Positions 1,153 to 61,121 of a DNA stretch of 64,000 nt are shown here, piece after piece. Origin of the DNA: Moniliella sp. 'wahieum'. Taxonomy: Eukaryota. Position 1 is the stretch's first letter. The number at the start of each line of letters is the position of its first letter. Both the position numbers and the translations under genes were made by a program. The notes beneath the pieces were generated by a model that saw only the letters and a program-made list of their open reading frames with translations, had not been told where the DNA came from and made no database searches. The stretch spans positions 62,001-126,000 of the forward strand of contig RSEE01000047.1 of NCBI GenBank assembly GCA_003971905.1, read 5' to 3'.

Positions 1153-2146
1153 GATGAGAAAGTGGGAGGGTGTGCGGAGGGAAAGACGAGTGTAGGTCGT
1201 ATGTAATGAGGAGCAATGGGGTGGGCTAGGAGGACCTGCCCAACGAGCCCAGGAAGGTGGTGGAAGCAACGAGACGGAAGGCTGCGATGCGAAAACAGAA
1301 TGGTATCTGTCCAACAATGGCTGGCACAGCCCCATAACATGCACCAGGGCTTGACAACGTCTGCGGGGGGGGGGGCTCACCAATCACCGATGTGTGCGGG
1401 GACTGCGACCGGTGAGGTTGGTGAGCTGCTAGCCATGTCATAGATTAGTCAGCCGGTCAGACTCATGCGCCCCAACGTCCTGGCAGCTTGGACCCTGGCA
1501 GATGGACTTGGCCTTCCTCGGTCTCATATCCCCCGCCCTCCCGCCGCAGCCACGACGACACGTGTCAGACAGGCATGGCGCCACTGCTCCAGATGATACG
1601 TCTTTCACGGTAATTAGGGTAACCGGTAACTGGCCCCAGAAGTGAGCTCGATGTGACTCGTGAATGCGTGAACGGGTGAACGTGGAGACGTAGGACATTG
1701 GCCTTCCTCCATGGTCACTCGAATTCTTGAGGCCCAGGCTTGCCAGCTGCACGCCTCAAATTTCAAAAGTCTTCCATGGAACGCCTCGTCGGTCCATTTC
1801 CTTTTCCGCCGTAAAACAATGGGAAAGTGAGCTGCTCAGGCAATTCACATGCTATGGCGCAAGCGCCCAATGAAGCCAGTGACTAGTAACTAGTGACTTA
1901 TTAGCGCTGTTAGCGCTTAGTATGTTAGCTGTGATATTATTTTGAAATTTTGACTGGGAACCGAGAATCCGGAATTCAGGGAATAGGCCTTCCTGACATT
2001 CAGTTACTGAGTGAACATAGTGAACGTACGTGCGTGCAGTTTCAAACCCAACTTGAATGTTCATTTGCACGTTAAACGTTAACCCTTGAACTTCAATGTT
2101 CAACGCTTCGGAGATAGAGATCATTATGTGACGCTTCTGGCAGGCG

Positions 2147-2170
2147 TAAGGCCTAAGGCCTAATGCATGA
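2147..2170. repeat. 7-bp-period TNA-palindrome array
   Basis: TAA GGCC TAA GGCC TAA TGCA TGA. Confidence 0.9.
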
Positions 2171-2808
2171 GGGGACTAACTCAATGGGTTTGGTGTTGGA
2201 TGATCGATGATTGGGTACGTTCTGGGAGCGACACCTGGAGTAGGGAACTGTTTGCTACGCGACAAGTGCGGCTTGATATTGAACGTTGAGTGTGGTGAAC
2301 GTGCAATCTGAGATTGAATGTTCGCCCATGGCTTAGGGCTTAGGGTTAGGTGACCGGTGAGGCGGCGAGTGCGAGCCTGGGAGGTGTGCCATGTGATATG
2401 TGGCGTGTGAAGTGTGATGCGGCGATTGCATTGGGATGGAGCAGCGGCCGCGACTGGAGCCCAACTTAAACACTTGCGGTCTTCCGCCCGGTCTACTCCG
2501 AAATTTGCAGCGTTCTGTGCCCGTGACAGCTCTGGTGGCAAGCAGGGGGGTGGCCCGCCGCCCGTGGGAGCGCACTCCACCTGTGTGCGCCTGTGTGCCT
2601 CACCACCTCACCGCCCACGGCATCATCCATCCCTCGCCTCTGCCACAGCGCCAGCCGCCGCTCCAGTGACCGGTGACGTGTGGGCAGGCACGGCACCAGT
2701 CTCGCTTCCTGCTCCGTCGGACGCCTGCCGATGCAACACCGCCCCCCCACCTCTCTCCCCCTGCCCTCTCCCGGTCAGTCCATTTTCACACCTTCCCGTC
2801 GACACACC

Positions 2809-2814
2809 TATAAG
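2809..2814 (+). promoter_or_regulatory. TATA-like box upstream of the desaturase
   Basis: TATAAG about 115 bp before the ATG at 2925, followed by a pyrimidine-rich tract. Confidence 0.4.
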
Positions 2815-2924
2815 GAGCGGCTCCGCCCCTTATCCGTCCTCTCTTCTTTTTTCTTTCTGCCGACCTTGTCCGCTTTGCCACCGACCGATTCTGTCCCGCT
2901 TCCTGCCAAGCGGACACCTTCGTC

Positions 2925-5980: not shown

Positions 5981-7797
5981 AGTCTGCTGTATCTCAGGTC
6001 CCAGGTCCAAGGTCGGAGCGCTCAGTCCAAATGAAGCTCGATCCTTGGTCATTGATCAGCAAACAGCTGGTAACTTTTCCTCGACGCTGTACGACCCAAG
6101 GGAAGTTATCCCCCTTGGCCCCTGCGTCTTTTGGTGTGATCATGCATCCTGTATATGGCTACGATGTGGGCGCCCCTGATAGAATGACCGAGCCAGTCGG
6201 CGTTGCATGATTCTCTGGCCCTGTTGACATCCCATAGATCCCAACTAAGAGGTCATCTGAGGTCTGGCCTCAGGAGGCTGACAGGATCCAAATCGCCGGA
6301 TAACGTCAGGTGCACAGAGGGCTAGAGTGGAATTATGATTGACGCTGGGACAGAAGACGTCGAGCGTATGTGCGGTGGAGGGAAAACACCCGCTTTACTG
6401 CAGCGCCGTTACGGGGCTTGTCCAGGTCAGGCACGGTCTCTTCACCCACTTGAAGCTTTATTGCCATCGACAGAATTGACGCGTCCGCATATCTCACCCA
6501 CATCTCCTGCCTTGTCCCGCCCTGCTCTCTTCTATGAGAGAAAGCAATGCCTCACGTTTAGTCTTTCAAAGCGCCCCCTTTACCCCTCGGCGCGCGGTCT
6601 TCATTTCCCGCCGCCATTGGCCCACACCTAGGAAGGATAGCGCCACAGTATTCACGCTCACACGTCAAAATGCATTGCCGCACGAACACTGTCTCTCCCC
6701 GTCGCGTTGGTTGTGCCATCATTCGGCGCGCCCTCCCTTGCCTTGGGGGAAGAGGTGGTACTTCCAGAGATACTGTCCCCAAAGATTCACTCTCAGGCTT
6801 TTTTGTTCATCATCCCATGTTCAACCCCATTGCACTTGGTATGATAGCCCATGATTCAACTCGTCCTCCAGTTCGGACCCGCTGATTTCGGAACGTCCAC
6901 ATCCCGGCGGCTACTGCCTCGTTCTTCGACTCGTTCTCCTTGCCTCTATCTCCCCACTCATCTTTGCGACAGAGGCGCACGGATCGCAGTCCCTGGACCT
7001 CGTTTCCCTGCTACCCGGGTGAACCAAAGAGGCATACGAGACACGGCTTCAGTGGCGCCCGCCCCCGACGACGCCAGTTGATCGTCTTGTCCCTCTCTTT
7101 CCCAACGAGCATATCTCACCACCACCGCTCACGAACCGCCTGTCCGATGTACGCACTTGTCGAGCGCATGCCTCGAATGACATCGACAGCCAGGCCGCCT
7201 CGCTTGACCCCGACGAGGCGCAGCGGCGTGGTGGGTGCGCGGGTGGCCCGTTGAGGACGAGCGGAGGGAAAAGTATGTATGCCCTCACTCGGTGTTGCAT
7301 TGCACGTTGCGCGCAGGGGTCGGGGTGGGCATGTGATGCCTGTGATGCGGCACGGAGCGGTGGCACATGGTGCTTGCCTGGGCTGCCGCAGGCCCAGCAC
7401 CAACGATGGATGAGGCATCATGCATGCGCGATTATTTGCACAGCTGAAATTGAAATCCTGGGCTATGTGATATGTGGCATGTGACATGTGATGCATGATG
7501 CATGATGTGATGTGTGCTGGCCGATAGTCGATAGCAGCCGGCGGCAGCCAGGTGTGGTGCCTGAGGCGCTGAGGCCGGAGTGGGTGCTGGTGTGCTGCTG
7601 TGCTGCTGTGCGTCGGACCCGAACCCAGCTGGCCCTGTCCCTCATGCATCAAGCATCAAGCATCATCGGTCGGTATGCGTCATGGCCATTTGATGGCCAG
7701 CACACCAATCACGAGCACTAGCCAGACCCCGCCCGTCAGCCCACTGCCCGCCGGGCGTCTCGTGCAGCCTGCCCACCATTCCCCATCTGTCCCGGCC

Positions 7798-9866: not shown

Positions 9867-9935
9867 GAAGGAAGGAAGTATTGGTACAAGGCGCGCGCCG
9901 ACAGAGCTCCAGCGGGCAAGAAAGCGCCGACACGC

Positions 9936-13297: not shown

Positions 13298-14766
13298 GGC
13301 GAAAAAGGGCGGTGGAGGAGAAGAAAGAGCTCGGGAGCCAGTCCGGCCGGCTCGGTGGCGTTGGCCCTGGGCAACCAGACGGCCGAGCTGGTGAGGCCGC
13401 ACGGCGCCAGTGTGGGGCGTCCCGGAACCGGGGCCGCACGGGGGCAGACTAACGCCCGCTTACAAACGCGGTTTTGAAGGGTGGTTCGATTATTTTGCAA
13501 ATGCATTTGAAATTGCAGCTCCCGGCTTTGCACCGATTTCCCCGGCCCCACGGCAGGAGGATGCATGATGTGCATGATGCATGATTCAGGATGCAAGATG
13601 CGGATCGACGCTGCGACCGCGATGAAATTGCAATCTGACAAGGGAGAGTGGCTAGTGAGTACGCGGTCTTAGACGGTCTTAGATCTTAGATCTTACCGAG
13701 TACCACCTACGCGCGCGCCACCATCAGCACCATCAGCGCATCAGCGTTGGAATGCGCGGAGCCTGCAACAAGCTTCAAGCTTCAAGCACAAGCCTGCTCA
13801 GGCTTCCGAAGCTGAAGCTAGTCAAGCCACACACCGTCGCAACAAATTGCCAGCGCCAATGGGTCTTCGTATTGGCCGTCCGGCGTAGATCCAATCTCCA
13901 GCCACCAACATCCGCCGAATCCATCGTAGTAGCCCATTGTCTAGCGCCCCTACATCAAGAGTGACGTCACCGGTCGCCCCACCTCGCTCGGCACGTGGCC
14001 CGCGTAACGCGTAGCACGCGTTCTTTCCTTGAACCCACACTGGCACCCACACGAAGGTGCGTGCCTTTTTATATCTTCTCACCCGGGCGCGGTGGATACG
14101 GGATGCAGCTCCTTCTCGACGCCCTAATACACAGAACCCAAGACTGGGATGGCGGGCATCACATCCGTCCATCAGGTGCATCAGCGCAGGTGCGCACCAA
14201 CTGCCCCGCGGGACTGGCTAGCCATCGTGGTGGAGAATGCTGCTGCGGCTGGTGCGGGGGTTAGGTTATCGGTTATCGGTGATGTGTATAATGTGGCGGC
14301 GGAGGAGGATGGATTGAATACTGAGTACTGACACGTGTTGCGCCTGGGCTCACGCTGAGCTCAGCGTAGGTTCGCGTGGGCCCGACCAGCGCAGCCCCCG
14401 CGCAGTGACATCACCACATCACGTGCTGGTGTGATGCGACACGCCCCACCTGCTGCGGGCGCGCGGGGGCAGTGCGCCCCAGCGGGAGCCCACACTGCCC
14501 CTGGGCGGCGCGCGCGCTCGCCGCCCCGCCGTGCAGGCCGCCCCGCCCAAGCAGCCCGCCACAGAGCGACACCAGCACCCGCCGCTCCACCGCCGCTCGC
14601 CCCGCCCTCGCCACCACCACCACCACCACCGCCTCCGGAGCTCCCTCGGCACCCCGCATCCGCTCCTGTGCCTCCTGCGCCTCCTGCGCCTCCTGCCCCC
14701 CTGCTCCCCTCCCGCCCCCACGTTCATGTCTGTTTCCACGGTCCCCGCCCCTGCGCAGCCTGCCGC

Positions 14767-17700: not shown

Positions 17701-20700
17701 CAGGCTCATCTCCATAGCGCCGAGGATGACGGCCGCGAAGAGACCCCCGTCTTGATCGAAAAAATGGAGGCTGCACTGCGCAAACAAGTGGAGCGCGTCC
17801 GGACCGAGAAGATCCTCACTTCCAAACAACGAGGCCATCGCGGTACGGTGCCGGCTCGGGCTCAGGCTCGCTCAGGCTCCATCGGCGGCTCAGGTTCTCT
17901 GGCCGGGTTGGGATCTGGCTCCTTACCGGCCCACGAGGCGGAAGGCGCGCAGCCGCACCTGTCCCTCCTGTCAACGGCACGAAGGACCTGGAGGCGCTCG
18001 GGATTCGCCTCCAGCCGATGGCGGGAAAGTGAGCTGGAGGCGCGGCAGGGTCGAGATGACACGAGCGACGATGGTGCCGCCGGGCTGGGCGCCGCTGCGC
18101 TGCTCACGCCCTCGTCAGAGGGACACCGGACGCTGGGTCAGGACGTTGGACGGACGACGATGCCCTGCCGCCGCAGCAGGTCCGTGCCCAGATCGAGGCG
18201 TATTGGCGCGCCAGCTGGCCTCGAACGCGGACATGGGCTCGCGCATGGCGGACACACGCGAAACTCGGATGAAGGCGCGCCAACGTACCGAAGCTCGTGC
18301 GGATGGTGCGGCGACAGGGCAACAAGGGGCCATCTGACGACGCCAGTCTGTCCGACCGCGAAGGCGAGGGCGAGGGCGAGTACGACACACCCGACCGCTC
18401 GTCGTTGTACGACGCGGAGGCGGCAGTTCACGTGGCAGTACCAGTGCAGCGACGCAAGCTGGATACGTCACCGGTTCTTTTCAGGGCATTCCCACCACCC
18501 GGGGCAGCTTCGGTACCTGCCTCTCGGCCCGCGCCAGGCTCTTCCCTGACGGGGCGCAAGTCGTGTCAAGTACAGCCGAAGCACCTGAACCAACGTCGGT
18601 ACAAGGGCCGGCTGCAGCCAGCACCAGCACCAACAGCACCAGAACTACTGCCAGAAACAGCACCAGGACCTGCCTCTGTATCAGACCAGTCCCCTCTGTT
18701 CCTACTTCCGAGAGGGAGTTGGCGACTGCCGAAACCCCGGTTGCAATCGTCTCCAACGGAGATCTCTCGCCCGTATCGACGCTGAACGGGAGCTTGAAAC
18801 GGTGCCAAAGTCTGATGAGGGAGAAATCGCTGAGCGTTGCCAATCCGACCTGGTATGGAACGAGCTTCCATCAAGTTCGCACCAACCTTCACAGACCTCG
18901 TTCTTGTCTGCCCCCACCAACTCGAATCCCCCCTGCATCGGCCCAGGGCGCCCAGCTGTCTCCCCTAGCGGCCCAAACGGAGTCCGAGTCTCCCTCAGGT
19001 GCTCCAGCTTCCCTTTTGACCCCTTCACCCCCGCAGAGTGGTGCCGGGTTGAGGAACCAAGCTTCCTATGAACTCTTCTCTCTCTCGCCCCGATCCCAGA
19101 CGATCGATGGCCTGTCTCCAGCGAGCCTGCCCGTGCCGCTACCGGGGAGCTTGTCCAGTTCCATCCCGGAAGAGTACATGTACCTGCACGCCTATCAGCG
19201 CCGCCGCCCACGGCCGCCATGTCCCAGCCCCTACCGGCCTCTACTCCCCCCTTCCAGATCGAAGGACGGGAGGCGCCTCCCCCATCCTCTACTGGGGCGG
19301 ACGCCCGTGTCCACGTGGACCTGCATCATCGCCATCGCTCGCGGTGGAGACAGCCATCCCGGCCCACCCATCTGGTCCGCCTGAACGTGTTTTGTTCCAG
19401 ACGAGGGCAGATTTCTTCACCTCGTTCCTCTTTCACCTCACGCTTCTCAGTCTGCTGCTGGTCGATTCATGAGCTGGGCTTGCATCTGCCCCTGGACTTG
19501 AACATGAACCTGATCCTCAGCTCACACCCACTCCTAAGCCTGACTTGACACATACGCCTAGGCCTGAGCCTACTCCTACGGATGAGTCTGAATCTGCCCT
19601 TGCCTTCGCTTCCTGTCATCCTCATCACCCCCACCACCACCACCACCACCACCACCCCCGCCTCCTCCTCCTCCTCCTTCACAGCCACCCTCTTCTCTGA
19701 ATACGGCAACTGATAGTGGAGATGCTCCTCCTCCGCCACCTCCCCCTCCCCCTCCTCCCCCACTTAACTTGGCATTGGGCCGGATTGGGGGAGTTGCCGG
19801 GCTCCGTCCATCGGCCAACTCAGCTCTGTTGCGTTCGTCTTCATCGCCCACTCGGCCGTGGAGGCTTCCGCGATTCAATGCTCAGTATGCGCACTTCGTA
19901 CCTGGGCCCGCGTGGTATGGCTGGCCCTGCTGCGCCTCCCCCCCCGCCCGACTCGGCTCTGTTGCGGGAGATGCTGAAGCGGAAAGAGGTGGCAGAAATG
20001 GCGAGCGAGGATGAAACAGCTTCAGTGGGACAAGCTCTCACTTGCCATGCAGCCGAGACGATTTGGGGACAAAACCAAGGCGCTGCGGTGACGAGTTGGC
20101 GCTGGCACGAGCGCTCAAGATGTCGGGGATGTTTCAACATATGGAGACTGACTTCCGCGCTCAGACGCACCTGCCAAAGAAGGGGTCGGGGCGGCCAAGA
20201 AGCCACGGGTCGAGTTGACCAGCCATCTTTCGCTCCAGACGCGACAGGGAATTGAACTGATTTTGCGCCGGGTCAAGTCTCGCATCACGGGCGGGAAGCA
20301 TGCTACGCCCGAGGAAGTTGCGACGACATCATTCACTGTCGTCCCTCGATTTTGGACCAGGGGTTCCTCTCGGAACTGTTGCGACACTACCCTGAGAGCG
20401 AGACCAAGGGTCAACTGGGTGAATATCGCAACGCGTCGAACGAGGAGTTGCTCCTGCTTCACCCGGCCGACCGATTGGTGGTGCTGCTGATGACGGTGCC
20501 TCACCTCAAGGAAAAAGTGCAGGGATTGCTCTTTACTCTCGCTACCGCGAAACGTACGACTTGATCGAGGCTGCCAGCTCCAAGATCCGAAACGGCGCGG
20601 AGCAGTTGATGCAGGCACCGCACTTTAACCGGCTGCTCCACATCATCCTCACAATGGGCAACTTCCTCAACGCCACCGGAATGCAGGGGGGTGCGTTTGG

Positions 20701-22012: not shown

Positions 22013-22472
22013 ACTCTGCTGTTCACTTGGTCTCCCCCCTCCACCACCTTCTCCACCCTTGAATTTTCTGTGCGACTTGTTTTTTGTAGCGTGTCTGAGC
22101 ATTGGCGCAGATTCCCATGTACGACCACGAACAACGTTCATTACGCACGCTCCTCTTTTGTCCCCGCGGGGGGAAGCCATTCTGTCGCTGGTATATACAG
22201 GACCTGATTAGGCATCCCAATGGACAGCGAGATCGAGTGGTTAGATGCACGTGACCGCCACGTGACGTGGGATGGGATGGAGGCTGGCTGATGATGATGT
22301 CTAAGATCTGAGCCCGGGTGCTGCTGGGAGGAGCGGAGGAGGATCGACGGGAGAGACGCCGCCGGACGGGCAGCCCCACTGCGCATCTCAAGAGCACTTG
22401 CTCCCCCCACCGCCCGCCCCCCCTCCGCCCCCCTCCGCCCCCGCGTCGGCAGCAGTGCTGCCTCTCTGGCCC

Positions 22473-24509
22473 ATGCCTCTCTTCCCCGCCGTCGCCGCCT
22501 TCTTCGGCGTGCCCCCCCCGCCTGCCCCTGCCGAGCGCACGCCTACCGACTGGGGCGGTGGTATGACACCTCCTGGCGCCTCCCCTTTGCAACCCCAGCC
22601 CCCCCCGACCCCTCCACCTCCACCTCCGCCATTCCTGCCGCAGCGCCGAGGTCCCCGCCAGGCCAAGATGCCGCGTACCCCCGTCTGGCTCCCACGTGGG
22701 CACGCATCCGCACGTGGTGCCGTCACCAATTCCCCGAGATTGCCGACACTCTCAATTTGCCCGCATCGTCCGAGGTGATCCACGAGTTTGAGCGCCGCCT
22801 CGGCCGCCGCCTGCCCGCCGCGGTGCTAGAGAGCTTTGCCTTGGTCAACGGACAGGAGAACGAATCGCTGTCGGATGCTGCCTTGGCCCGCTCCCGTGCC
22901 GGACTGGTGCTGGGGTTGCCCCTGCTCTCCATCGAGGAGGCTATGGCCGAATGGTCGTATTGGCGCCAGGTGGACTCGGATCCTTCCTCGGGTCCAATGC
23001 CCAAGTGAAAGCGAATATGGCCTCTTGTCCCGATGGCTGGGTCGCACCGCAGTACAGCAACCCGGCCTGGGTTCCTCTTGTGACCGACCGAATGGGCAAC
23101 TACATTGGTGTCGATCTGAGCCCGCCGAGCGTGGATTCCGCCGGAAGGAATGGGAACGACTAGCCAATGCGATGGCCAGTACGTCGATCGTTGACTTTGG
23201 TCTTTCTTCCCGGGCCATCGCTTCTTCCTCCGCCTCGCCTCTCAGGGGAATCGGTACCTCACGCGAAAGTTTCCCAACACCTGGAACGCTGAATGCTGTT
23301 CCGAGTCCCGTCCCAAGCCCCTCTCCTCTTCCACGTGTTCACCTTCGTATTCCTCCCAAGGTCATGGGGAGGCAGGGCAAGTCATCATTTTTGGTCGGGA
23401 TTTTGACACCAAGGTTGTCCTCCACCCAGGCAGCGGCAAAGGCGGTTGGGCTACTTTTTTGCCTACCTCGCTGATACGCTGGACCGCGGAGTGTTCTTCA
23501 CCCTGGATGACGAGTTCAGTGAGAACAGCGATGAGGAAGACTACATTGGGTATGAGAACTACTTTGGAAGTACGACGGCCAGTGCTGTTGGGGGCGGATT
23601 GGCCAGTACCCATTTAGGAGGGTATGGGTTCCGTCTCCGCAAGCCGTACAAGGGGGTCAGTGTTCTGGAGGCGCTGGCGGACCAAAGTGCACGCCGATGG
23701 GAAGAAGAAGGGTTTTCCGCGGCGTATCTATGGCTGAGCTAGAGTGGCATCAAGCTGAAGCTGCCGAGAACGAGCCCGACGAGAACAACGAATTCGATTT
23801 CCCCCACTCTTCCAGTGACGACATTGGGGACCATCGAGAAGATATCCTCGTTGACACGCCATATGGGATGCGATTCCCCGTATCTGCCGCCGCCTCTACC
23901 TCGTCTGCGGCTAGAAACAACTTGTCTGACGCAACTGCTTTTGATCACCCTCTTTCCCCTCGGCGAAACGGGGATGGTGGACGGTGTCCCTACCACCAGA
24001 TCCTCTTCCTCGGCCGACTCGGGTACTGCAACACCCCCGCTGCGGCGCAAGCCTCCGCCGCCTCAGTCCGCCGATTTGATGGCCTTGCCTACCATTGAGG
24101 ACTGCAGGCGGTACGAGAGGAAGTGCTGCAAGATGCACTAGGCCACGATTACCACAACATGACATCTGCCGCGGAGCGCAAAAGACGCGGCCCAGCAATG
24201 TGTTCAAGTCGATCCCCTTTGGTTGGTCATCCGCGGGACCCCCGCCCGAGCCCGACATTGAAGCCGACTTGCCCACGAACCGTGCCGCCCCGTCACTGGG
24301 GCTGACTAGCCCCACCTCAACATTGGCGCCTCCAGATTCCCCACTAGAGTCGCGAACGACCCTCTCTCCCAAACTGACGCCCGATCAGGCATATCGCTCC
24401 CTTTTGGATGCAAGTCCGGGTCAAACGCCTAATGGAAGCAGCCACGACCTGCGACCTACTGGACCCCCGATGCACCTCCCCTCCACCCCCCTGCCAGAGC
24501 GCACAGTAA
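22473..24509 (+). CDS. SMI1: Smi1/Knr4 family cell-wall (glucan synthesis) regulator; ends approximate
   Basis: 'HEFERRLGRRLPAAVLESFALVNGQE', 'GLVLGLPLLSIEEAMAEWSYWRQV', 'SCPDGWVAPQYSNPAWVPLVTDRMGNYIGVDLSP', 'GQVIIFGRDFDTKVV'. Confidence 0.85.
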
Positions 24510-26153
24510 GTGCCAAGGGAAATCGGCAACTCGCTGTACTTCATGGGTTGGTGGATGCACATATCCTCCTTCCTTGTCCACCTCGGTGTCGGTCGGGCGT
24601 AGCCCCACCTGTCTATGCTCTTTCACGCGTGTTCTTTCCCTCGTCTGGTTCTGGCTTTGCAACCTGCGCACCCACCTCATTTTGCGTCGGGCCAAGGCGG
24701 CTGGCCAGAAGGATGCTGGGCGGGACAAATGTGTCTGCCTGCCGTTCGGGGCCCACTTACTACTTCAGAGGAAGAGAAGGGAGGAAGGGCACAGCAGTGA
24801 GCTCAGCCTGAGCATTCGCCATTCTTTTTCATCCCCCTCCTCCATTGTAAGATGTCCATGGCCCTTGCTTTCTTGTGTGCGCAGCTTGGTCTACTGATGT
24901 ATTGGGCGTGGCTAGCCGTCACTGTATTATGTTCCACCACAATCCCTCTCCCACCCCCTCTTTAGCCCTCGTGCCCTCCACTGCGGTGGACCGAGCGCAT
25001 AACATGGAAAGCGTCTTGTGTATCCTCTCTTTCCGCTCGCAGGCTTGAGCACCTGGACGCCTAGCTGAACGCTGTATCCCTGGTCTCCTTCCGGACGTTG
25101 AATAACGTTCTTGTGTCTGTGCTCGTGGAGCACCGGTGGGGGCAAGAGCTGGTAGATAGACAAGGACTGGCTTATCGTAGCTTGATAGCTTGATCCTCTC
25201 CTAGATGGTGTGGCACAAAACGTGGCTCTAAGCATCACTCTCTGTCTCTCGTAGTTTTGTGATGATGGCGGGCCTACGTGCCAGGCCTACACCCTCCTGC
25301 ACCGCCTCTCTCCTACTTGGTTGCGAAATCTGGCTTGCTCCGCCGTTCATCCCCACCCCGCGCAACCACTGGCCCCTCCTATTATGCCTCTTGCGGGGGG
25401 CAAGTCAAACGTATACTGGCTGGGATTGAGCAAGGCGGCTGCAAGGGGGATCAGCAGCGTCCCCAATCCAGGGGCGCTGCGTTGGCACGCGCGCATGCTG
25501 CCACCTACACGACGCAGGACGTGGAACCACGGCAGGACTAAGCGCACGAAACTACAGCTTGATGACCGACAGCTGAGAGACCCACCGAGTGAACGCCCCG
25601 CTGCTCTCGTTCCCCCTCGCCCCCCTCTCCTGACAGCTGACACTACGAGCCGGAGGCAAGGAGACATGCATGGTGCCCTCAGGCCTCCAGGCCCAACGTA
25701 TCGTCCTCGCCGGCGCGTACGCAAAACAGCCAGCAGGACGGGGCACTGCGGAGAGCGTGGCCACCGAACACTCCTACCGGGACACTATGAAAGAAAACGG
25801 CGTAGCCCCGTTCCGGTCCAGCCTTGGGTCGCGCGCTGGGAATTGCCAGCCCGTCCCCGTCAAACCCAGAGAATGCCCCCAGGCAACTGCCCACGCACTC
25901 GTCCCAGCCAGATCGGGCAAATATCATGTGTATCATATACGCCGGACGGACCCAGCCCATACAAAGGCGCCTTGCGCATTGATCATCGATCATCCCAGCC
26001 CCGAAGACGACCAATGGTTGAGATCAAAGAAACGGAATGGGACCAAAGGCGCGTGTGTGCGCTCGGCAGACCAACCCAGGCAAACCAACCATGGCTGGCT
26101 GAGCTGCTGCCAGCGGTTCACACAAAAAAAACCAAACACAGAACAGAACAAGG

Positions 26154-28540: not shown

Positions 28541-28962
28541 AGGGCGGCCCAGCGTGCGGACGACGGGAGTGCGCCTGCCTGGGTGGCGCGCGCAGACACG
28601 CAGGCGGAGGGCGGCGCGCGCAGCAGCAGCGGCAGGCCGCAACGCAGCGGCGCGGTGGGGCAGCATGGGCGGCGCGGCTCGGCGGGCTAAGCGGCGGGCG
28701 GAGGGCTGGGCAGCGCGACGAGAGCGGTGTTGGCCAGAGCAGAACGCCCAGCAAAGGCATCTACCCGACTCAGCGGCCCAGCGCAGGGGCAGCCTGCCCG
28801 CACACTGCCCGCATGCGCCCCCGCCCTCCGCCGTCTCCGTGCATATTGCATGCCCAACGTCATCGATCACCCACAGCCGCCGTCCCTCAGCCGTTGCCTG
28901 CCCGCCATTCCGCCCCTGGTCCAGCCCCAGCGTCTCATGGCCGTCCCCATCGAGTGAAATGT

Positions 28963-28986
28963 TCAACGTTCAACGTTCAACGTTCA
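28963..28986. repeat. 7-bp-period TNA-palindrome array
   Basis: TCA ACGT TCA ACGT TCA ACGT TCA. Confidence 0.9.
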
Positions 28987-29045
28987 GCGCGCTCAGCACG
29001 CCTGGCCCCGCTGCGCCACCGTCTGGCCAGTGTTTGTGAGGCACA

Positions 29046-30875: not shown

Positions 30876-31640
30876 AGAGATATCCATTGTATATTATTTG
30901 TCCTCATTTGCAAACACCCTCTTCTGGACGTGCGGAATGGGTAAACTCTATCGCCCTCTGACCTGTCCAACCTCCCCAGGCCACGCAACAACGATGTGCA
31001 TACAAAAAGCAGAGCAATATATGGGAGGGGGGCTCTTTTCGTTCAAGGGGGTAATCTGCTACTCCTGACTATAGAATACGGTCGAATTGTTGGCCGGCCG
31101 ACGCCCTGGTGACTGGAGGAGAGAGCCTTGTTCTGGCACACCCAAGGGCAAGCCTTCTCATCCACTCGCTTCAGCGCAAGGTGTCAAGTATATACATCGC
31201 CCCCATTGCCAAAACTGATACCGCAACAGCGCACGATACATAGAGCGGGACAACGAGCAACTCGGGCGTGCCGAGGTGCCAGACAAAAGTGCAATGCGTC
31301 GGTAGTACAGAAGAACTGCTGTGCCCGACAGAACCGGGTGAAACGTCAAAACGGGGCGCCGGGTAAAAGGCGCTGGAAGAACGGAGGGTTAATTGATCGA
31401 GACTCGATAATGGGCGATAATCCGACAATTCCGCAACCGCATTTCGCATGCGTCTGACATGGTCTCTCCTCCGACCATATCACTGCCATTAGTCACTAGT
31501 CACCAGTCACGGCATGCTCATCCATATTTCCTCTGTGAGCCATCCATTTCTTCCACCCCATCCATTGGTATTCTTCGCCAGAAGCGCGACTGCCTCTCAT
31601 CCCTCCGTGATCGGTTAACACCATCGATCCATTTGCCCGG

Positions 31641-35400: not shown

Positions 35401-35423
35401 TCAGGCCTCAGGCCTCAGGCCTC
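35401..35423. repeat. 7-bp-period TNA-palindrome array
   Basis: TCA GGCC TCA GGCC TCA GGCC TC. Confidence 0.9.
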
Positions 35424-38208
35424 GGCCTCACAGGCGTTGGAGTTCCGTCGTTTTGCCGCTTCTCATCCGTTTTCCTTGTTCGGCAGCTTATAGCCCCTGG
35501 CGGCAACTATTGGCTGCTTTGATGTTCCTCCGTATATAGGCTAGGGACGGCTGGCTTATTGCTCCACCACCGCGTGTCACTAGTGCCTTTGCATCACGCT
35601 CGATGAGGACCACATCTGAACTCCAGGCCTCAGGCTGTGGCCTCATCGCGTGCATGGAGCTATCCTATATTGCCCGTGGGAAGATGTGCATGACTTTGCG
35701 CCAAGGCCTCCATTATGCCGAAATGCACCAGTGCATCTGCACTTCTCCATTCAGTAATACTCCCAGTACACTCAGTATACTCTCAGTACGTTCAGTCAAG
35801 GTGTGCAGAGCCCCTGTCCGCATAACTATGCTATGCATCAAGAAGCAATGCATGTCACAATGACATTGTTCCTGGGACATATGTGACTGAACCCCGTGCA
35901 CTATCCTAGTGTGTTGGCCCGAGACGTCCGCCAAGCACACCACCGCTGAAGCATTGCTCCCGCGTCCCTTCTCGCCGCCCCCGCATCGATCATTATGCAT
36001 TAATCGAACTAATGGACTAATCCCTTCTGCGAAAACAGGGCGTGGTACTGTGCTGGCTGGCAAATGCCACAACGTCAATTCTCAATAGGGCATTTACCGG
36101 ATTCATATTCCTTTTCGAGCTTCATGCTCTATGCTTCATGGACGCGACGGAGGGAATGCGAGAGGCCCCCACAGCTAAAGCGGCGCGCGCAACACGTCAC
36201 TGGTCGCCCCCTGAGGTCTGAGGGCCTGACTAGCTGACTAGTGACTAGCGACTCAGGGTACTACTCAGACGCTATTGACTTTTTCTGTAGCGCGAACGTT
36301 TGCTTTCAAGCATCACATGCAGGCGCCACGATGGTCGATGATACCGATGATGCAGCAGCACAGTGCACGATGCTTTGCGGGCAAATGTGCGTTAGAGGAG
36401 GAGAGCGGAGTGGAGCGGAAGCATGCGGTAACCGATTATAACCTGTGACACGCGCGTACCGCGTAACGCCAGTGTATTAACATGCAAGCCTGGTAGCACA
36501 TGGCACACACATCTCATGGCCGCATCGATCATCGATTATCGACCTCGACCTCATCCATGCACACACTCAAAGAAACATAGCTCTGCCATCCTGTGGAAGC
36601 TTCCTCAGGCCTTAGGTACATATAGCCGACACATGCTGTACTCCGTCTCGCGTTACGCGCTACGTATGGCCGACGTGGACGACGAGAGAGAGACGAGGGA
36701 AAAGCTGAGGCGAAAATACTGCTCTTCCTCGTCATCGCGTCATCATGCATCATGCATCATACATCCCATGCACCACATCAGACTCTTGCTTGCCTGGACC
36801 TCACCCGTATTAACAAAAGCTCCCCTACAAGCCGCGAGGAAGCGAAGGCGGGCCTATACGGCGTGGCTTTTGGGGAGGGATAGATGATCGAGATATTGAT
36901 GAAGTTTGAACTTTGATGCGTCGATAATCGATAACGGACGTGTTACGACTGTGCCGGAGATGCTGCTGAGAAAGGAAGCACTCAAACATCTTCGGGGGAA
37001 TGGGGCAAGGGACGGGCGGACTGGATGGGACTGTGGATGCGATAGAGAGGAGGCTGGCGAGAGTGTGTGTGTGACTGATAGCTTCCAGCCTTCGGCCTTG
37101 TGGGCCCGTCCCGCCACACTGCCTCCGTCCTGGTTGTTTGAGGTACATGCGATACCACGAGGCCGCCTTGGGGGCTGTCTTGCTCGTCGTCCCTATCGAT
37201 CTATCGACTATCGGTCACTCGGTCACTCGGTCATCCACCGTTGAGTACTTGAGTACTCAGACTGAGTACAGACAGGTACAAACTCGTGAGGTCGGTGACC
37301 GGTGACGGTGAGGTGGCTCGAGTGACTAGTGACTAGAGTGACCAGTGACAGTGACTATCGCGACGGCCGATTCCAGGCGGCCCGGGGCCACTGGACCGGG
37401 CTGGCACGGGGGCACAGCTTCTCTATCGCCCAGCTGCCCATGGGGTTAAGTTTATCGATCTCATGCTAAATTCCGCATGGGCTGCGGCAGCAGCTGCAGC
37501 GCATCAGTCAGCTGGCCAGTCCTCATGCGCTCATGCACTCATGCACTCGTGCGCGCGTGGGGCCGGTTTTCCCAGCCAGGAACCCAGTTTGCCACAGCCA
37601 CTCCATGCGAGACAGCTGCGTGCACTCGCGTCCCCCGGCACAGCGCCAGTCTGCTGCGGCGAATCCGCTCGGGTGGAGCGTGGCGCGTGGTGGGGTACAC
37701 TGGACAGGAACGGCGGTGCGTCTATCGCATGCGTGCGCGGACGGGAGGACCCTCGTGTCCGGGGCATATCGCCCTTCGAGGAACCGAACGTCACGACACC
37801 CCCCCCCCAGCACGGGCATGGCGCCAGTGTGCGCCGCTATCTCCCTCGGGCGTTTTAGATTGCTCCGTTGTCGCAGCAGGCAAGTGTGGGTGGATGGTCG
37901 CGCAGTGGGCCGCATGGAATCGGCAGCCGCGTTGGGCTGGCCCGACTGGGCAGCCCAGCACAGCACCGCATCGCCCCCCCAACGCTCTCTGCCTGCTCTG
38001 GCTTGCCTCGCGTGGGGCACAGAGCCAGTGTAAGCGTTATCCACGCCCGCTGCTGCCCTGCTGCCAGGCTCCGCATGGGCAGCAGTCAAGCCCACGCCTG
38101 CCAGCATCGCAGCCACGCAAACACATGGCCCCCAGTCCGTCGGCCTCGCACTGCACCAGCGAAGGACCCGCCCGCCAGAGCTGCCAGAGCCTGCGGGCCG
38201 ACCTGCGG

Positions 38209-38215: not shown

Positions 38216-38289
38216 GGCACCAACACCATGCGGTTCCCCAGCTTCTTCCTCTCTATCCCGCCCGCCTCTCTCTCTCCTATCGCCTCGCC

Positions 38290-40193: not shown

Positions 40194-41743
40194 GCTCATA
40201 TCCCTGTTAGAGCGCCCTTCCCCCTTCCCACACTTACTTACGTATATCCCGTTATCAGGCCGATTGACATCGTCACGGGTTGAATGTACATTCCCATGAT
40301 CATATCTCCTTGCTCCCATCGCTTACGCCGCACATTGTGGAAGATTTTATATGGTGTTTTCGATAGTTGTCCATCCCATCTCGGTTGGGGCCTGAGGGGC
40401 CGGAGGCATCTTTTTCGGTCCATCAGGTTTCATCGACGCTCCTATGTCTGTTTTCAATGTCACTCCTGATTAATGATTAGCTTTCGCTTGTACCTCAACA
40501 CAGGCACTTGATAACTGCAGCAGCTTGGGATCAAAGTTATTCTGATAATGATCCTGCGGATCCACCTGGTTCCTTAACATGGTGGCACTACCAAGTAGCG
40601 CAACACGCAAGATGAACAGATCGGTTTAACCGTAGCGTTTCCCTGTCCCAGCCTTAAGCTCTGTCAATGGTATGGATGCACTATGAGACGCTCGCAGACA
40701 CTGCTAATAAGAAACGTCGAAGCGAATGTTTTCAGTGGGCGAAAATGCGTGCGTTTTTCTTTTGTTTCGGGCGTGTAATAGCGGTGGGCTGGTTGGTTGT
40801 CGAAGAACGATGTTGTTTATGTGGATGACTAGTTGGATGCTGACGCGCTGACGTTGATGGACGACAACATTGAACGCTCTGAGCAGCTCCTCTCCTCACA
40901 CATCTCACATCTGCGTGGATCTATCTCCAGTGTGCATGATCTCTTCAGGATTCTTCAGGTCATCTTCAACGTATCAACTCTCATGACGCATGATGCAGTA
41001 ACATGCTTTTATCTCATGGAGGGTGGAGTGGCTTTCCCGCCGTTACTTGTTACCGGTTACCAGTTGCTGTTGACCTCTGGTCATTTATGGCCAAGGTCAC
41101 TTCCGAGTGACATCATGTGTGATGCGCGTGTGATGTTTTCTGACGTGGCGTTTCCGACTCCATGATGACTTGGATTCGCCATCGCCTTAGCAATTTGATC
41201 TCCATCGACCACCATTCCCATTTGCTGCTCTTTGAGCTCTTCCTAGGCGTTAATAGTTGCGGGTTACTAGCTGCGATAAGGCCAATCTCCTCAGATCTCG
41301 GTCTTGGGTCCTGCACCATCGATAATCGATAAGGCCCTAAGGCCTAAGGGCAGCTTTCTAGCTACGCGTCCGGCCGACTTTCATTACTTCGCCGCGCGCC
41401 AACATGCGCGCGGCCAATATTAAACGTTCAAAAAGGTGTTGATCTGGCGGGCTGCGCACAGGAGCAGTCTGCTCAAGGTGGCGTGGTTCTTTCGGCGGGG
41501 CCCTGGGGCCTAATAAGCGCCTCTGTTAGGGTTTGTTTGCCTCCACCGCCGCCATCGCCTCCTGGCTCCTGGCTCCCCCACAGGCCACCCGACCTCGACC
41601 CCGACCCCGATCCCAACTCCGGCTTCCATCTTTTCAGCGCCACCGCAACCACCCACATAATTGTGCACATCGCCCTTCTCAACGCGCCCGCACGTCGCAC
41701 TTTTTCGTTTTCGTCCGCGCTTTCCGTTTTGCCCCTTTCGTTC

Positions 41744-47164: not shown

Positions 47165-47691
47165 CATGCTGGCTCGGCTATTCAAGCCCAATCCACCAGC
47201 ATCGACCCTCTCTCCGACCTCCTCTGAGATGTTCTCCCCAGGTCGAACCATTTCCTAGCGCCTCAGCCCATCAGCTCCGTACCTCGTTTGACCAGACACG
47301 CGGCTTGAGCGCGTCAGCGAGCGGTGATCACAGAGCGCTGAGGCTCAGCTTTGAGGATCAGATGACCTCTTGGCGCAATGCAGAGTTCAGTCGTCACGCG
47401 TCACGCGTCACTAGTTCGCATGCCTTCCCCGCACTCCCTATCTGGGCATCTGACTGCCCCTTGTAGGACCCAACGCAATTGGCGTCAGCAGACTGTCTCT
47501 CCCGGGACAAGTATTGACATGCAGAATGACATTTCCTCACCCTCCCTCTATCACTCCGGACAACCATCTCCTCACATTGGCGACTTGAAGCTAAAGCTTC
47601 ACGGGCCACCTATGGTCAGTGAATGTAGGGTAGTGGTGGCAGACCCCAGATGCAAGCTCCTCGGGTTCCTCTGCCACAGCACAGCACTTCT

Positions 47692-49392: not shown

Positions 49393-49612
49393 GGCAGCAG
49401 ATGGTGGAGCACTGTGGCAATCTCGCGCTCGCTGCCCCACTCGTGCGTTGCCCGTGAGCGCCCCAAACGGCTGTCTCGACAGGGCTTCCGCCGTGTTCGG
49501 GGTGGATTAGGTAATTTACTCCACCGGCCATGAGCGAAATCTGCGACATTTTGTTCCGATCGCCGGGACATGTCGAGGTGGAAGATCGATGATCGCGGCG
49601 GATCGGTGATCC

Positions 49613-53874: not shown

Positions 53875-55993
53875 GGTGGGGCGGGGGCTGCAGGGAAGCA
53901 AGGTGGGGGGGCGAGCAGGACAAGCAAGGGGAGGAGGCTGGAGAAAGAAGGTGTGGTAGAGAAGGAAGTGGGCGTGGCTACCGACGCGGCCTGCCGCTGG
54001 CGGCTGCTGCTGCTAAGGCCAGTCGGGGCGAGCCTTATCACAACACCAGCGCCATGCGGCCCCCCGATCGCCCCGACCAGCAGCCGAAGGGTTACGTAGC
54101 AGCCGCTGGACACTGCGCTCCCGCCCGCGGCCACGCCTGACTCAAGTAAGGCGTCGAAGGGGGAGCACACACTGATGAGGTGCCGGGGTGCCCTGTGCAG
54201 GCACCAGGGTGCAGCCGATCCTCTCAGCAGCGCGCCAGTTGAAGCCAGACCCACCGCCCTGCGCGGGGCAGGCCAGCAGAGGCCACACTGGGGGGTGCTA
54301 CCTCGGAAGCTGGCGCATCTCATGTCTGACGTGTGCCGCGTGCCGCGTGACGCGTGACGCGTGACGCCTGGAGCGCCGACGCGCTTTTGCACCGAGGATG
54401 GGCCCCAGAAAAAAAGGCTCCGCTCTTGCTCCATCTCCGCGAGGTGTGCACTGGACCTCGGGACGACGTTCAAGGACCGGACCGGGCCCTGCCAACATGT
54501 TCAACTTGAACACCCAGCCAGCAGAGGAAATGCTGCTTGTTCATCGAAACTATCCCACGTCCCAAACGTGTTTCTTTTCTGCCGCATTTGAGGCGTTGAG
54601 CGAGAGCGCTGAGTGCTGAGGCGCCGAGATCTGAGACCGCGGGTGTGCCAAGATTTGCCGCTTCGATCTCACAGTGCTCCTTCAGTAATACTTGTTCCAA
54701 TCGCCCGGCCGTGATAACATTTTGACCACCTTCTCTCCAATATCAATAGCATCACTAAGTACTAAGTACTAACATCACTAACATGTAACACTCAGTTTAG
54801 CACACCCGTCTTTTTTCACGGACTGTGTCGGGATACCATTGCAAACCTTAATATTCTTGCGGGGCATCTTGCTCGAGGCTCTGCCACGGCTTCAAGCGTT
54901 TCCAGCTCCGCCCTGCTCCCCCTCAATTTTTTGTGCGCAGGCCCGTCCTGGGCTGCGCCAGCGTGCCACCAGGGCCACCCGTCCAGCACTGGACAGTTTG
55001 TGTTGGGCAAGCCAGTTGTCACAGTGACTAGTGACATGACGCACTTGGCCGTTGCGCAAACGGATTGTCCATTTTTCCAGCACTGCACCATTTGTCATCG
55101 CGACCAGTATCACGAGTTGCTCGCATGCTCGTGTGACAGGCACATGTGAAGCTTGAAGCCGGCGGAATAGATCCAGCCAGCATGGACTCTGTGAAGGCGT
55201 CTGAAACCCTTCGGCCTCGGGCTTCATCGGCCGGTCACTGGTCACCCTCACCGCACGTCGGGCATGATGCATGATGCATGAGATCGATGATGAATGAGAT
55301 CCGAGATACCTGCAATCGTACTCCTTTGCCTTCTGGTGAAGTGCTGCGTGTTTGGCAATTCACGTTGAATGTGTTGAACATATAGCTGAACGTGAACGTC
55401 GTGAACGTTGACCCGCACTTCACGAGCTTTGCCAGCAGCGCTGAGATTAACTATCTCCATGAGAATAGAGTGGGTTGTGGCCTGTATGGGAGTCCGCATA
55501 TTACATTTCGCCGTGCACATGCCATTGTGGTGCCGTCATACATTAAAGAGCCGTCCACCCCCCCCCCTCAGCTGAACTGTGAGGGTAGAAGTCAAGGAGG
55601 GGCGAGACGGAGCACATCGGACATGGGATGGAAAGAGAGAAGGGAGGTTTATTAGGGGGAAATCCAAGCAAAAAATACACGCCAAAAATAGCGAGGCCTG
55701 ACCGGTGACCGGGGCCTGAGCGAAACTCAACGTTCAACGTGTTCACGTTCATCGAGCGATCATCATGACTTGTCCGTACGCATCATCTTGTCGTTTGGTA
55801 GGCCTCGATCCAACCTCCAAACAACTGAATACAGCCAGAACAGTAAAAGAAAAGAATAAGAAAACCCGGTGGGGTCGCACCCACGACGGCAACAGAAATG
55901 ATGCCAAGAGAGCACAAGGCCGAAAAAGAGGTGTGGCGAGAAGCGCCAGTGAACCAATAACTGGAGAGGGTGGGGGGGGCGGAGTCCCACCTC

Positions 55994-58900: not shown

Positions 58901-59514
58901 GGAACGATTGGTCTTGATGCCGGTGCAGGAGGGGGTGCAGGAGGGGATGCAGATACGGGCGCTGCCTCGTACACTACAGGCGCAGGCACAGGCTGATACA
59001 CAGCAGGGGCCGGTGGTGGTTGATATGCCGCCGGAGCAGGCGGTGGCTGGTATGCTGCTGGAGCAGGCGATGGCTGATATGCCACTGGGCTGGCGACGCT
59101 GGTAGTACCCGACTGGGGAACGCGCTGGCTCGTACACGGTAGGTGGCCGGGGCTGCGGTTGGGGCGCCAGTGTGGGGAGTGGCGCAGGTTCGTAGACGGC
59201 GGGGTATGAGTGTGGGCGCGGGGGGGGCGGCGGTGGCGGGGTAGGGCGCGGGATAAGCGAGGGGCTGGTATCCGGCTGCGGGGGCGGGAACGGGGCTGGG
59301 GAGTGTAGATGGGAGAGTGCAAGGCAGGGGGCACGGGGAGAGCGGCCAAGGGTTGTGCTGTGGCTCGTACACTGTGCGCCGAGAAGATGGGAGATGTGGG
59401 GCCGACGAGGCGGTGGGAGGGGCCAAAACCGAGGCGGGATATGGCGTTGCTGTCGGGGCGGCTACCGGGAGGTGGGGGTAGGCGGCGTCCTGGAAGCCGG
59501 GGAGAGGTAGGCAT
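55994..59514 (-). CDS. Chitin synthase (division 1, class I-III type) with Pro-rich N-terminus
   Basis: '[12 protein letters not shown]', '[15 protein letters not shown]', 'LVDAGTRP', '[13 protein letters not shown]', '[11 protein letters not shown]', '[13 protein letters not shown]', 'QRRRWLNGS', '[15 protein letters not shown]'. Introns near 58020-58077 and 56685-56755. Confidence 0.95.
58960..59090 (-). repeat. About 30-bp tandem coding repeat (PAPA[A/V][A/V]YQPxP-like units) in the chitin synthase N-terminus
   Basis: '[41 protein letters not shown]' in ORF 58744..59589. Confidence 0.8.
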
Positions 59515-60394
59515 GGTAGCCCCCCTGCGGCGGTGGGTTGGCCATGTCGATCGGACAGACAGACGGCAGAAGGACGGGCCAAACGACACAATCGCCGATG
59601 GGTCCTGGAAGGAGGTGGCAGGGTCGAGGTGGAGTAAAGAGAGGGCCTTGGGCCGCTGCGGGATTGCTTAACGTTTTTTGCTTAGTGCCTGTCTACTACA
59701 TAGGCCACCCACTACAGGTTGGGCCGCTGTGGGTTTCACAGCCGAGAGGAGAACACCTTTGGTCTCCCTTCGATGATCATATCAGTGAGCGCCTCTGCCC
59801 ACACCGTCTTGCACTGCCCCTCTGGCAGTTTCCATGGATGGTGATCATGATTACTGAGTACGGGCGCCAGCACCACAGGTAGCACAACCCAGCGCCCCAC
59901 AGCACACACATCACGCCCACTGATGTTCTACCAAGGTAGTGAGGCACATGATCGCCATCTGCGCTTCCTACTGCTCCCCAATGCCTCGTCCTAACTGCTG
60001 TGCTGCTGCTGTCCTTACCGCTCGGAACCTGCGGAGGGCCGGTGACCGGTGGCCGGAGACTCGAGTGAAGCTAGCGAGTACTCTGTCTGAGTCCAGTTAG
60101 TCTTGGGCCGAGTACCGGACTGTTGCTGTGCCCGCCAGGCGGGCTGGGAGGGCACTGTGCTTTGGGACACTTTTGTCCATCTCGGGTCTCACATGTCAAC
60201 GCCACAGAAGGGCAAGACTCGAGAAGGCGAAAGTGCTGCGGGTGGGCTTGAGTCGAAATGCATGACCATAGAACCTGCGTCAACAGTTCCGCCGCTGGTC
60301 CAAGCAAAGTCGGCGCGTATTACGTACCCCCTCGCGGAGCGTGTAATTTCAATTGCCAGCCAGCAGACTTGGGAGCTTGGGCGCTGACAGACGC

Positions 60395-60425
60395 TGACCG
60401 GTGACCGGTGACCGGTGACCGGTGA
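60395..60425. repeat. 7-bp-period TNA-palindrome array
   Basis: TGA CCGG TGA CCGG TGA CCGG TGA CCGG TGA. Confidence 0.9.
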
Positions 60426-61121
60426 CCAGCTGATTTGCCCCAAGTGACTAGTGACTCAAGCAGTATAGTCACTCTCGAGTCAGTAATACTCAGTACACTC
60501 AGTAGCAAAAGCTGCACTGAAATAGAAACCCTTCAGAACCCTCTCCTGGCCCCAGGCGTCGGATCATCCTCATCACAGTCGCATATATAGCAAGCCAACA
60601 GCGGACAACCACTTGGTAGCTTGCCCAGCTTATCTTCTTCAGCCGCTTGGGTCTGCCTCCATCCCTCACAGCTGTTGCCCACTCTAGAATCCATCATGTG
60701 TTTCCAAAAACAGATGTATATGATGCCGTATGTTCGTTTGGCTGAACGCGCTGTTTGCTTCCCAACAAACAACGCGTCCTGCCCGCCATACATCATTCTC
60801 ATGTGCCCTTTCACAACTCCATGTCAAAGAAAAGTGATGTCCCTAACGGTCATGGTAGTCAGGGCAACGGTGAGAAAAAGGGAGGATACAAAACGAAAAG
60901 GAGAGATCAGGAGAAACAACACGCATCTTCGTAGATGAACGCAACGGAAGGGGATGCGAAGAGTGTGAAAACTGCGAGCATCAAGGCGAAAACATAAAAA
61001 CAGAAAACAGTGACTGATGAGGATGAGACAATCAGGGTAATACATCCTCAACAATGATACCAGCTGTAATATAGCTGTGAGCCACGCGAGCGGAGGATGG
61101 GTGAACGAGACAAGGTATATA

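Follow-up and report, generated by a model that had tools for sequence, protein, structure and literature searches.

Flank-templated 7-bp insertions at TNA sites in non-coding DNA of Moniliella sp. 'wahieum': candidate excision scars of a cut-and-paste transposon

In a stretch of 64 kb from the genome of Moniliella sp. 'wahieum' (contig RSEE01000047.1, positions 62,001 to 126,000, assembly GCA_003971905.1; hereafter the window, with positions counted from its first letter), TNA triplets in non-coding DNA are repeatedly separated by exactly four bases that form a palindrome. In most cases this palindrome is copied from the two bases that flank the triplets, and the resulting structure can be written as an insertion of 7 bp into a TNA target. 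The DNA itself shows the pattern and its templating by the flank, and also that it is one-sided, uniform, decaying and located in non-coding sequence. We give an even chance to the reading that these insertions were left behind as scars when a cut-and-paste DNA transposon excised.

Results

Every overlapping match to TNA-N4-TNA was counted as a site, and a site was called palindromic when its N4 is a 4-bp palindrome. By this definition, 71 of the 157 sites in the window are palindromic, as compared with an expectation of 6.58 +/- 2.59 (maximum 15) in 200 dinucleotide-preserving shuffles of the whole window and of 7.05 +/- 2.42 (maximum likewise 15) in 100 shuffles confined to blocks of 500 bp. 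Of the 16 palindromes that four bases can form, 14 are in use, namely all 12 that contain G or C, together with AATT (1756) and TTAA (40467), while ATAT and TATA are absent among the 71 palindromic sites. Moreover, N is identical on both sides in 59 of the 71 sites, versus 1.97 in the shuffles. An earlier note on this DNA had drawn attention to the pattern at 35 coordinates, had reported all 12 palindromes containing G or C as well as a usually constant N along the arrays, and had suggested a count against shuffled DNA and other flanks. All 35 coordinates recur among the 71 sites, both descriptions hold, and the palindromic excess over the shuffled background on which its claim depended is present. 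The view taken there that symmetry and spacing are conserved, and not the sequence, is likewise borne out.

The excess is specific for the flank and for the spacing. With TNA as the flank 45% of the sites are palindromic, versus 4.1 to 9.4% with 15 other flank classes of the form aNb. When only sites with an identical N left and right are counted, a four-base spacer is palindromic in 59 of 103 cases, and spacers of 2, 6 and 8 bases remain near chance (9/28, 3/64 and 0/39, respectively). The control consisted of 80 contigs from metagenomes (882,458 bases), collected around the chitin-synthase homologues of other fungi. Here, 178 of 2531 TNA-N4-TNA sites are palindromic (7.0%), which corresponds to the chance level and indicates that the pattern is not a general property of fungal DNA. 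The metagenome search with the chitin-synthase exon yielded no close relative, the best identity being 65%.

To delimit coding DNA, open reading frame (ORF) stretches with Pfam matches were taken as the coding mask, which covers 25% of the window; a mask based on GC3 was discarded as too strict (14% of the window). None of the 71 palindromic sites lies inside these Pfam-supported exons.

Palindromic sites 7 bp apart were joined to chains, which gave 54 chains, 42 of them with two TNAs and 12 with three to five. In the following, xy denotes the two bases before the first TNA of a chain, zw the two bases after the last, and a prime the complement, so that y'x' is the inverted copy of xy and w'z' that of zw. 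The spacer mirrors the two bases beside the outermost TNA in 40 of the 54 chains: it ends in xy (y'x'xy) in 20 chains (type R1, left flank), begins with zw (zww'z') in 10 (type R2, right flank) and satisfies both rules at once in another 10 (type both). The remaining 14 chains have a palindromic spacer that mirrors neither flank and are termed flank-independent; the approximately 7 palindromic sites expected by chance correspond to about half of them. Either mirroring rule is expected in approximately 12% of chains, which gives a binomial p of 1e-25 for 40 of 54. Since most chains mirror their flank, the elementary event is xyTNAzw -> xyTNA-y'x'-xyTNAzw, or its mirror image. Around its central N the 7-base unit xyTNAy'x' reads as a perfect palindrome, which corrects the earlier statement that the arrays are not perfect inverted repeats.

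The same event is seen when five-base repeats are counted. Over both strands, xyTNA is repeated with a gap of 2 nt in 92 cases, and the gap equals y'x' in 70 of these. The same repeat structure occurs 23 to 62 times for seven other core types, which is the background level, and xyTNA repeats with gaps of 0, 1 and 3 to 7 nt are likewise at background (5 cases for gap 0). The inverted bases are copies of the xy side 70 times; there is no case for the TNA side and none for both sides.

Read literally, such a scar is a 5-base direct repeat plus two inverted bases. This would suit the excision of an element with a 5-bp duplication (xyTNA), for instance a Transib/RAG-like one, which leaves two P nucleotides at only one hairpin-opened flank. 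Transib and RAG-like elements make 5-bp duplications, and in V(D)J recombination as in Transib/RAG chemistry even-tipped flank hairpins, once opened approximately 2 nt from their tip, yield P nucleotides of 2 nt. This chemistry counts for the 5-bp explanation, and the spacer y'x'xy resembles its products in being an even palindrome with 2-nt arms. However, a 5-bp duplication would require complete asymmetry to produce inverted bases on the xy side in all 70 cases, whereas a symmetric 7-bp duplication suffices without any asymmetry. In addition, TNA would lie off-centre in a 5-bp stagger, resulting in an asymmetric target for a dimeric enzyme, and joints without P nucleotides, that is with gap 0, do not exceed the background. 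Furthermore, V(D)J P nucleotides vary in length and occur together with trimming, whereas the scars in the window are uniform. Symmetry and one-sidedness thus favour 7 bp, and we regard a 5-bp element as quite unlikely.

Beyond T and A the target is weakly defined, with a mild preference for G at position -2 and C at +2 (32/80 after symmetrising) and with G or C as N (58/80). Fully palindromic targets are over-represented (10 of 40 chains versus approximately 2.5 expected), a bias that may stem from the choice of target, from easier sealing or from repeated hits. Microhomology between the flanks is not enriched, as z = y' holds in 10 of 30 cases (25% expected, p 0.29) and w = x' in 4 of 30. 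Nor did we find an enrichment of mosaic or plain-duplication spacers or, once cases that double as rule arrays or plain duplications are set aside, of the 1-nt-offset product yTNAz-pal2-yTNAz.

Perfect tandem runs with at least two copies number 58, 40 and 9 at periods 6, 7 and 8, respectively. One alternative is ordinary heptanucleotide microsatellite slippage with units that are palindromic by chance, for example when hairpin-prone units slip more often. Arrays of three to five units do exist, slippage may lengthen them, and among the 20 single same-N events that mirror one flank only, 9 lie within a period-7 run of at least 14 nt. In the other 11, however, the run is shorter than 14 nt. These events had no full heptamer to duplicate, and hence are not tandem duplications of a pre-existing heptamer. 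Moreover, the majority of the chains have two TNAs only, slippage cannot create inverted copies of the flank, and it leaves unexplained both the restriction to T and A and the mixed chains at 7482 and 54756/54779. Finally, 27 of the 40 perfect period-7 runs (at least 14 nt) obey one rule, where an unconstrained unit sequence would be expected. In agreement with the earlier note, which had set the pattern apart from ordinary microsatellites, we consider slippage a very unlikely source.

The scars are found in various stages of decay. Each 12-mer of the window was scored against the rule word xyTNAy'x'xyTNA, and overlapping matches were clustered into loci. Loci with no mismatch amount to 36 versus 0.25 expected, and those with one mismatch to 43 versus 8.15. 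Half of the recognisable scars thus carry one mismatch, with 36 perfect and approximately 35 lightly decayed scars in 64 kb. The single mismatches hit all 12 positions (T 4+4, A 6+6, N 4, x 4+4+2, y 4+3+2), and this even spread fits the pattern expected of old and young unselected scars that decay by point mutation. The ratio of one-mismatch to perfect loci, which is near 1, fits a long-running steady process, and a single burst at approximately 8% divergence equally well. At steady state, the gain of scars per non-coding TNA would be very roughly one third of the substitution rate per base.

The even spread of mismatches speaks against the view that the TNA or the palindrome is under selection. 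This bears on the possibility of selected regulatory sites, at which TNA half-sites spaced by 7 bp would be read by a dimeric factor, a candidate of the earlier note, and palindromic spacers would be retained by selection. The sites are indeed intergenic and to a large part located upstream of genes. Against this stand the 14 different spacers in use, which, in line with the note's own remark, do not resemble the motif of a single transcription factor, as well as the dependence of the spacer on the two neighbouring bases and not on the position within the promoter. In addition, copies with one mismatch are hit alike in T, A, N and the arms, as expected of scars without selection, and direct TNA repeats would differ from the inverted half-sites of a symmetric dimer. 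Selected regulatory sites are therefore highly improbable. An artefact of assembly or sequencing appears hardly credible, as the pattern is confined to non-coding DNA, forms a point-mutation decay series and follows the local flank sequence, and we know of no assembler error that gives non-coding confinement, a decay series or flank dependence.

The window has a G+C content of approximately 59% and a fungal-type, eukaryotic gene content, with genes in pieces and introns between them. According to Pfam, the ORF products include a chitin synthase, a formin (FH2/FH3), a PP2C, an amino-acid permease and a sugar transporter, and further an Hsp104/ClpB-type AAA protein, Cdc37, eIF4E, a class I/II aminotransferase and a fatty-acid desaturase. 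The chains, which are given here without strand, are distributed over the spaces between these genes as follows.

A first cluster (1620 to 2360) lies between the ORF of an RRM protein (minus strand) and that of the fatty-acid desaturase (plus strand). It contains R1 chains at 1620-1629, 2073-2082, 2201-2210 and 2351-2360, an R2 chain at 1756-1765 and a chain of type both at 1880-1896, with flank-independent chains nearby at 1910, 2147-2170, 2280 and 2667. The same region carries an interstitial telomere-like sequence (2330-2350, GGCTTAG GGCTTAG GGTTAGG), which has a period of 7 and contains TTA, and which breaks the palindrome rule. A single R1 scar with unequal N (TGA, TTA) is located at 6451-6460, and the mixed chain TGA-catg-TGA-tgca-TGA-tgca-TGA at 7482-7505; the latter would be derivable from TG-TGA-TG if a left-mirroring event came first and two right-mirroring ones after it. 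At 2385-2420 and 7459-7494, two 36-nt stretches of intergenic DNA are 86% identical (ATGTGATATGTGGC-type motif) and both enter period-7 TGA arrays. They may represent a shared promoter element, or similar targets that were scarred in parallel.

Upstream of the formin gene, a cluster at 13575 to 14331 comprises R1 chains at 13575-13584, 13679-13695 (three TNAs) and 14322-14331 and a chain of type both at 13775-13784. Just 3' of the formin ORF a single R1 scar with unequal N is found at 22302-22311. In or near the formin gene, low-complexity coding repeats composed of CCACCACC and CCTCC are present at 14591-14645, 19611-19761 and 22594-22639 (proline-rich, FH1-like). The next single scar, at 25983-25992, occupies the fully palindromic target GA-TCA-TC. 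It is followed by an R1 array (TCA-acgt)n with four TNAs at 28963-28986, which adjoins the PP2C gene and has a flank-independent site at 28860 in its vicinity, and by a single R1 scar at 31493-31502 upstream of the aminotransferase ORF.

Within a long gene-poor stretch from approximately 33.2 to 37.4 kb, a cluster extends from 35401 to 37332. It is made up of R1 chains at 35993-36002, 36743-36759, 36925-36934 and 37296-37305, R2 chains at 35401-35417 and 36235-36244, and chains of type both at 36529-36538, 36605-36614 and 37323-37332; flank-independent sites of this stretch are located at 34242 and 37250. Between the amino-acid permease and a Ras-family ORF, a further cluster (40467 to 41347) consists of R2 chains at 40467-40476 and 41050-41059, an R1 chain at 41323-41332 and a chain of type both at 41338-41347, with a flank-independent site at 41421. 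The scars at 36925-36934 and 41323-41332 share an identical sequence of 14-15 nt, (A)TCGATAATCGATAA, at two unrelated loci, and are probably independent events on the same GA-TAA target.

An R1 array (TCA-cgcg)n with three TNAs is present at 47394-47410, with a flank-independent site at 47592, and an array (TGA-cgcg)n with three TNAs on a palindromic target at 54348-54364 upstream of the sugar-transporter gene. Two adjacent copies of the target AC-TAA-CA lie at 54756-54788. The first copy (54756-54772) carries gtac twice and is left-mirroring, and the second (54779-54788) carries catg and is right-mirroring. Here, at 54750-54790, a 9-bp unit, CATCACTAA, is present in tandem twice, each copy with its own scar of a different type. 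Together with the chain at 7482, the two copies illustrate both mirror products of the model discussed below.

The cluster between the sugar-transporter and chitin-synthase genes (55025 to 55736) contains R1 chains at 55025-55034 and 55265-55281 (three TNAs) and R2 chains at 55147-55156, 55699-55708 and 55727-55736, as well as a flank-independent site at 55402. Upstream of the chitin-synthase gene we observed the longest array, (TGA-ccgg)n of type R2 with five TNAs (60395-60425), a single scar of type both (60445-60454) and a flank-independent site at 60189. A repeat of another kind, rich in CAG and AAC and with a period of 12 bp (CAGAACCAGGRC-type), lies at 62676-62778 inside an ORF without Pfam match, and a related stretch of 37 nt at 18634-18670.

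Discussion

The direct repeat of flank bases (xyTNA) indicates that the target was cut in a staggered manner. By analogy with hAT footprints, the inverted flank bases at the junction may be regarded as the mark of opened hairpins, that is as P nucleotides (PMC5873905). We infer a cycle of insertion and excision with a 7-bp duplication, hairpins and the joining of mismatched overhangs. Insertion would proceed by a 7-bp staggered cut centred on T-N-A, whereby x-y-T-N-A-z-w would be duplicated on both sides of the element. On its exit, the element would leave both flanks as covalently closed hairpins with a blunt ('even') tip, and each hairpin would be nicked 2 nt off the tip. The left flank would then consist of the duplex xyTNA with the self-complementary overhang zww'z', and the right flank of the overhang y'x'xy with the duplex TNAzw. 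If these two 4-nt overhangs were laid over each other and sealed, and if repair or replication settled the mismatches toward one strand, the outcome would be either xyTNA-y'x'xy-TNAzw or xyTNA-zww'z'-TNAzw, with exactly 4 nt between the TNA copies. The net result would be a gain of 7 bp, with a repeated 3-base core and a 4-base palindrome copied from one flank; as a general rule, the repeated core would equal the length of the duplication minus 4 (here 7 - 4 = 3). As such scars would recreate good targets, repeated hits and perhaps slippage could build short 7-bp arrays, and point mutations would later erode the scars. Because T pairs with A, a nick 3 nt off the tip would give the same products, so that the data do not fix the offset.

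In a dimeric enzyme that makes a 7-bp stagger, the dyad falls on the central base, which renders T at -1 and A at +1 symmetric. From the symmetric model follow the core of 3 bases, the palindrome of 4 bases, the two mirror products and the complete one-sidedness of the inverted bases, and in our estimation the reading as a whole could equally well be right or wrong. The earlier note had listed transposon footprints at TNA targets and a staggered cut with fill-in among the candidate causes. Of its suggestions these come closest to the data, but the palindrome is not arbitrary, being copied from the flank in 40/54 chains and 70/92 repeats. Its suggestion of a PIF/Harbinger-like element, the scar of which would comprise a 3-bp TNA duplication and leftover element ends, does not agree with a spacer that follows the flank and occurs in 14 forms in place of one fixed end. 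For the same reason, remnants of element ends between 3-bp duplications were rejected. Fill-in of a staggered cut without an element and hairpin resolution of strand-transfer intermediates were also considered and dropped.

Several observations weigh against the transposon. No element or remnant of one is present in the window, and no inverted termini stand beside TNA duplications of 3, 5 or 7 bp. A search of the window for terminal inverted repeats (at least 10 bp, duplications of 2 to 9 bp), a relaxed version of it and a search for long repeats were empty or returned artefacts of the arrays. Among 440 pairs of identical nnTNAnn heptamers 8 to 3000 bp apart, none has complementary inner ends and no termini recur, and no transposase domain was found in 148 hand-picked, mostly the longest, of the 182 ORFs of at least 130 codons. 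Furthermore, known hairpin footprints vary far more than this product, for which no other gap length is in excess, and N is the same at most sites, with only 2 of the 12 unequal pairs being complementary. The sealing of two non-complementary 4-nt overhangs is not a usual outcome of end joining, and z = y' is not enriched. The near-absolute T at -1 and A at +1 would be an unusually strict demand for the target of a eukaryotic transposase. Lastly, the density of the scars, approximately one chain per 1.2 kb of the window, requires a very mobile element that is kept at a very low copy number.

The uniformity of the product and the near-absolute requirement for T and A leave room for an enzyme-fixed process of another kind. 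An endogenous break-repair or replication process, for instance a domesticated hairpin-forming nuclease or a template switch at the ends of Okazaki fragments or flaps, might write the additional 7 bp at TNA without any mobile element. It would agree with the lack of an element in the window and with a product that looks enzyme-fixed instead of end-joined. However, a single break should not be able to duplicate 5 to 7 flank bases unless the copies were first separated, and snap-back or template-switch schemes would need extra homology that the flanks lack, for which reason such synthesis was dropped as the source of the product. Likewise, the 80 contigs of other fungi are devoid of the pattern, which argues against a general outcome of fungal repair. 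Altogether, we deem an endogenous process fairly unlikely.

Returning to the transposon, the scars share several features with known excision footprints. For Ac/Ds in Candida albicans, 28 footprint types are described in 128 revertants, and in hAT palindromes the centre is the complement of the base that adjoins the element (PMC5873905). As with Ac/Ds, other hAT elements and the hairpin model of Coen, as presented there, the target bases appear in the window as a direct repeat with short inverted copies of the flank at the joint, and as with Ac/Ds the scars remain in non-coding DNA after the element would have left (PMC5873905). An inverted copy of the adjoining bases, as flank hairpins leave it, is present in 40/54 chains and 70/92 repeats, and a direct repeat at the joint is documented by the 92 xyTNA repeats versus 23 to 62 for other cores and by the same N in 59/71 sites. 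In contrast to the varied footprints of Ac/Ds, the scars in the window have an even palindrome, an unchanged N and essentially one product: only one product class is enriched, whereas flank hairpins typically give varied P lengths and small deletions. A hAT-type centre would give a complementary N, and N is the same in 59/71; classical hAT chemistry thus does not fit, and the odd-hairpin model of hAT was dropped. The spacer z(w or w')(x or x')y that it predicts fails, for example, at 1620 and 2073. The duplication of hAT elements is 8 bp, or 7 bp in hAT7, whereas the 7 bp proposed here derive from the symmetry and the 3-base core.

Other superfamilies can be compared in the same manner. Tc1/mariner elements such as Sleeping Beauty leave a stereotyped scar of duplicated target and a fixed number of extra bases, and excision of P-type elements leaves element-derived bases and not flank-derived palindromes. 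The extra bases of Tc1/mariner stem from the element ends and are the same at every site, whereas those in the window stem from the local flank and are site-specific. Galileo, a P-superfamily element of Drosophila, resembles the model in its 7-bp duplication and odd-palindromic target; its consensus, GTAGTAC, has the centre A-G-T instead of T-N-A, and it is an animal element (PMC2775673).

Within the Basidiomycota, two DNA transposons with a 7-bp duplication are reported in one survey, namely hAT7 from rusts (Pucciniomycotina) and Kyakuja of the KDZ group from Laccaria, the latter with termini CA..TG and no inverted repeats (PMC12730594). The supplementary table of that survey gives consensus sequences and no target sequences, and excision scars are not described in the portion of its text at hand (PMC12730594). 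In the literature, as far as the sources were available, hAT7 and Kyakuja are the only fungal elements we found with the 7-bp duplication that the model needs. They share this duplication with the model and the phylum with the present fungus, but odd-centred palindromes of the hAT type do not fit the scars. The T1 element of Cryptococcus inserts mostly into intergenic DNA near promoters, with no motif reported in the available text (PMC9942834), and KDZ1 and KDZx1 make 8-bp duplications (PMC11343200); in the available parts of these two papers we found neither a 7-bp duplication nor a TNA target.

Our literature search retrieved no published description of such a genome-wide pattern, nor one that unites a 7-bp duplication with a strict nnTNAnn target and a single outcome of repair. 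Drawing all elements of the interpretation together, we tentatively put forward, while rating the full combination as somewhat improbable, an undescribed, very mobile and low-copy cut-and-paste system of basidiomycetes, or a domesticated descendant of one, that would combine a 7-bp stagger on TNA with RAG-like even-hairpin chemistry and a single fixed mode of rejoining. It would have left thousands of scars in promoters and spacers and would be the main source of heptanucleotide repeats in this genome.

If the transposon reading is true, the genome holds a dense and unusually clean record of transposon visits, from which the rate of excision, the choice of targets and the processing of hairpins in a fungus could be measured with no experiment at all. 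It would point to a class of elements in which a 7-bp duplication goes with a strict nnTNAnn target and one single outcome of repair. Should there be no element, the data would instead define a new process of site-specific insertion. On the transposon reading, the scars would moreover show concretely how a mobile element can seed tandem repeats of 7 bp, that is the birth of microsatellites, and the spacing and length of promoters in this fungus would change in steps of 7 bp.

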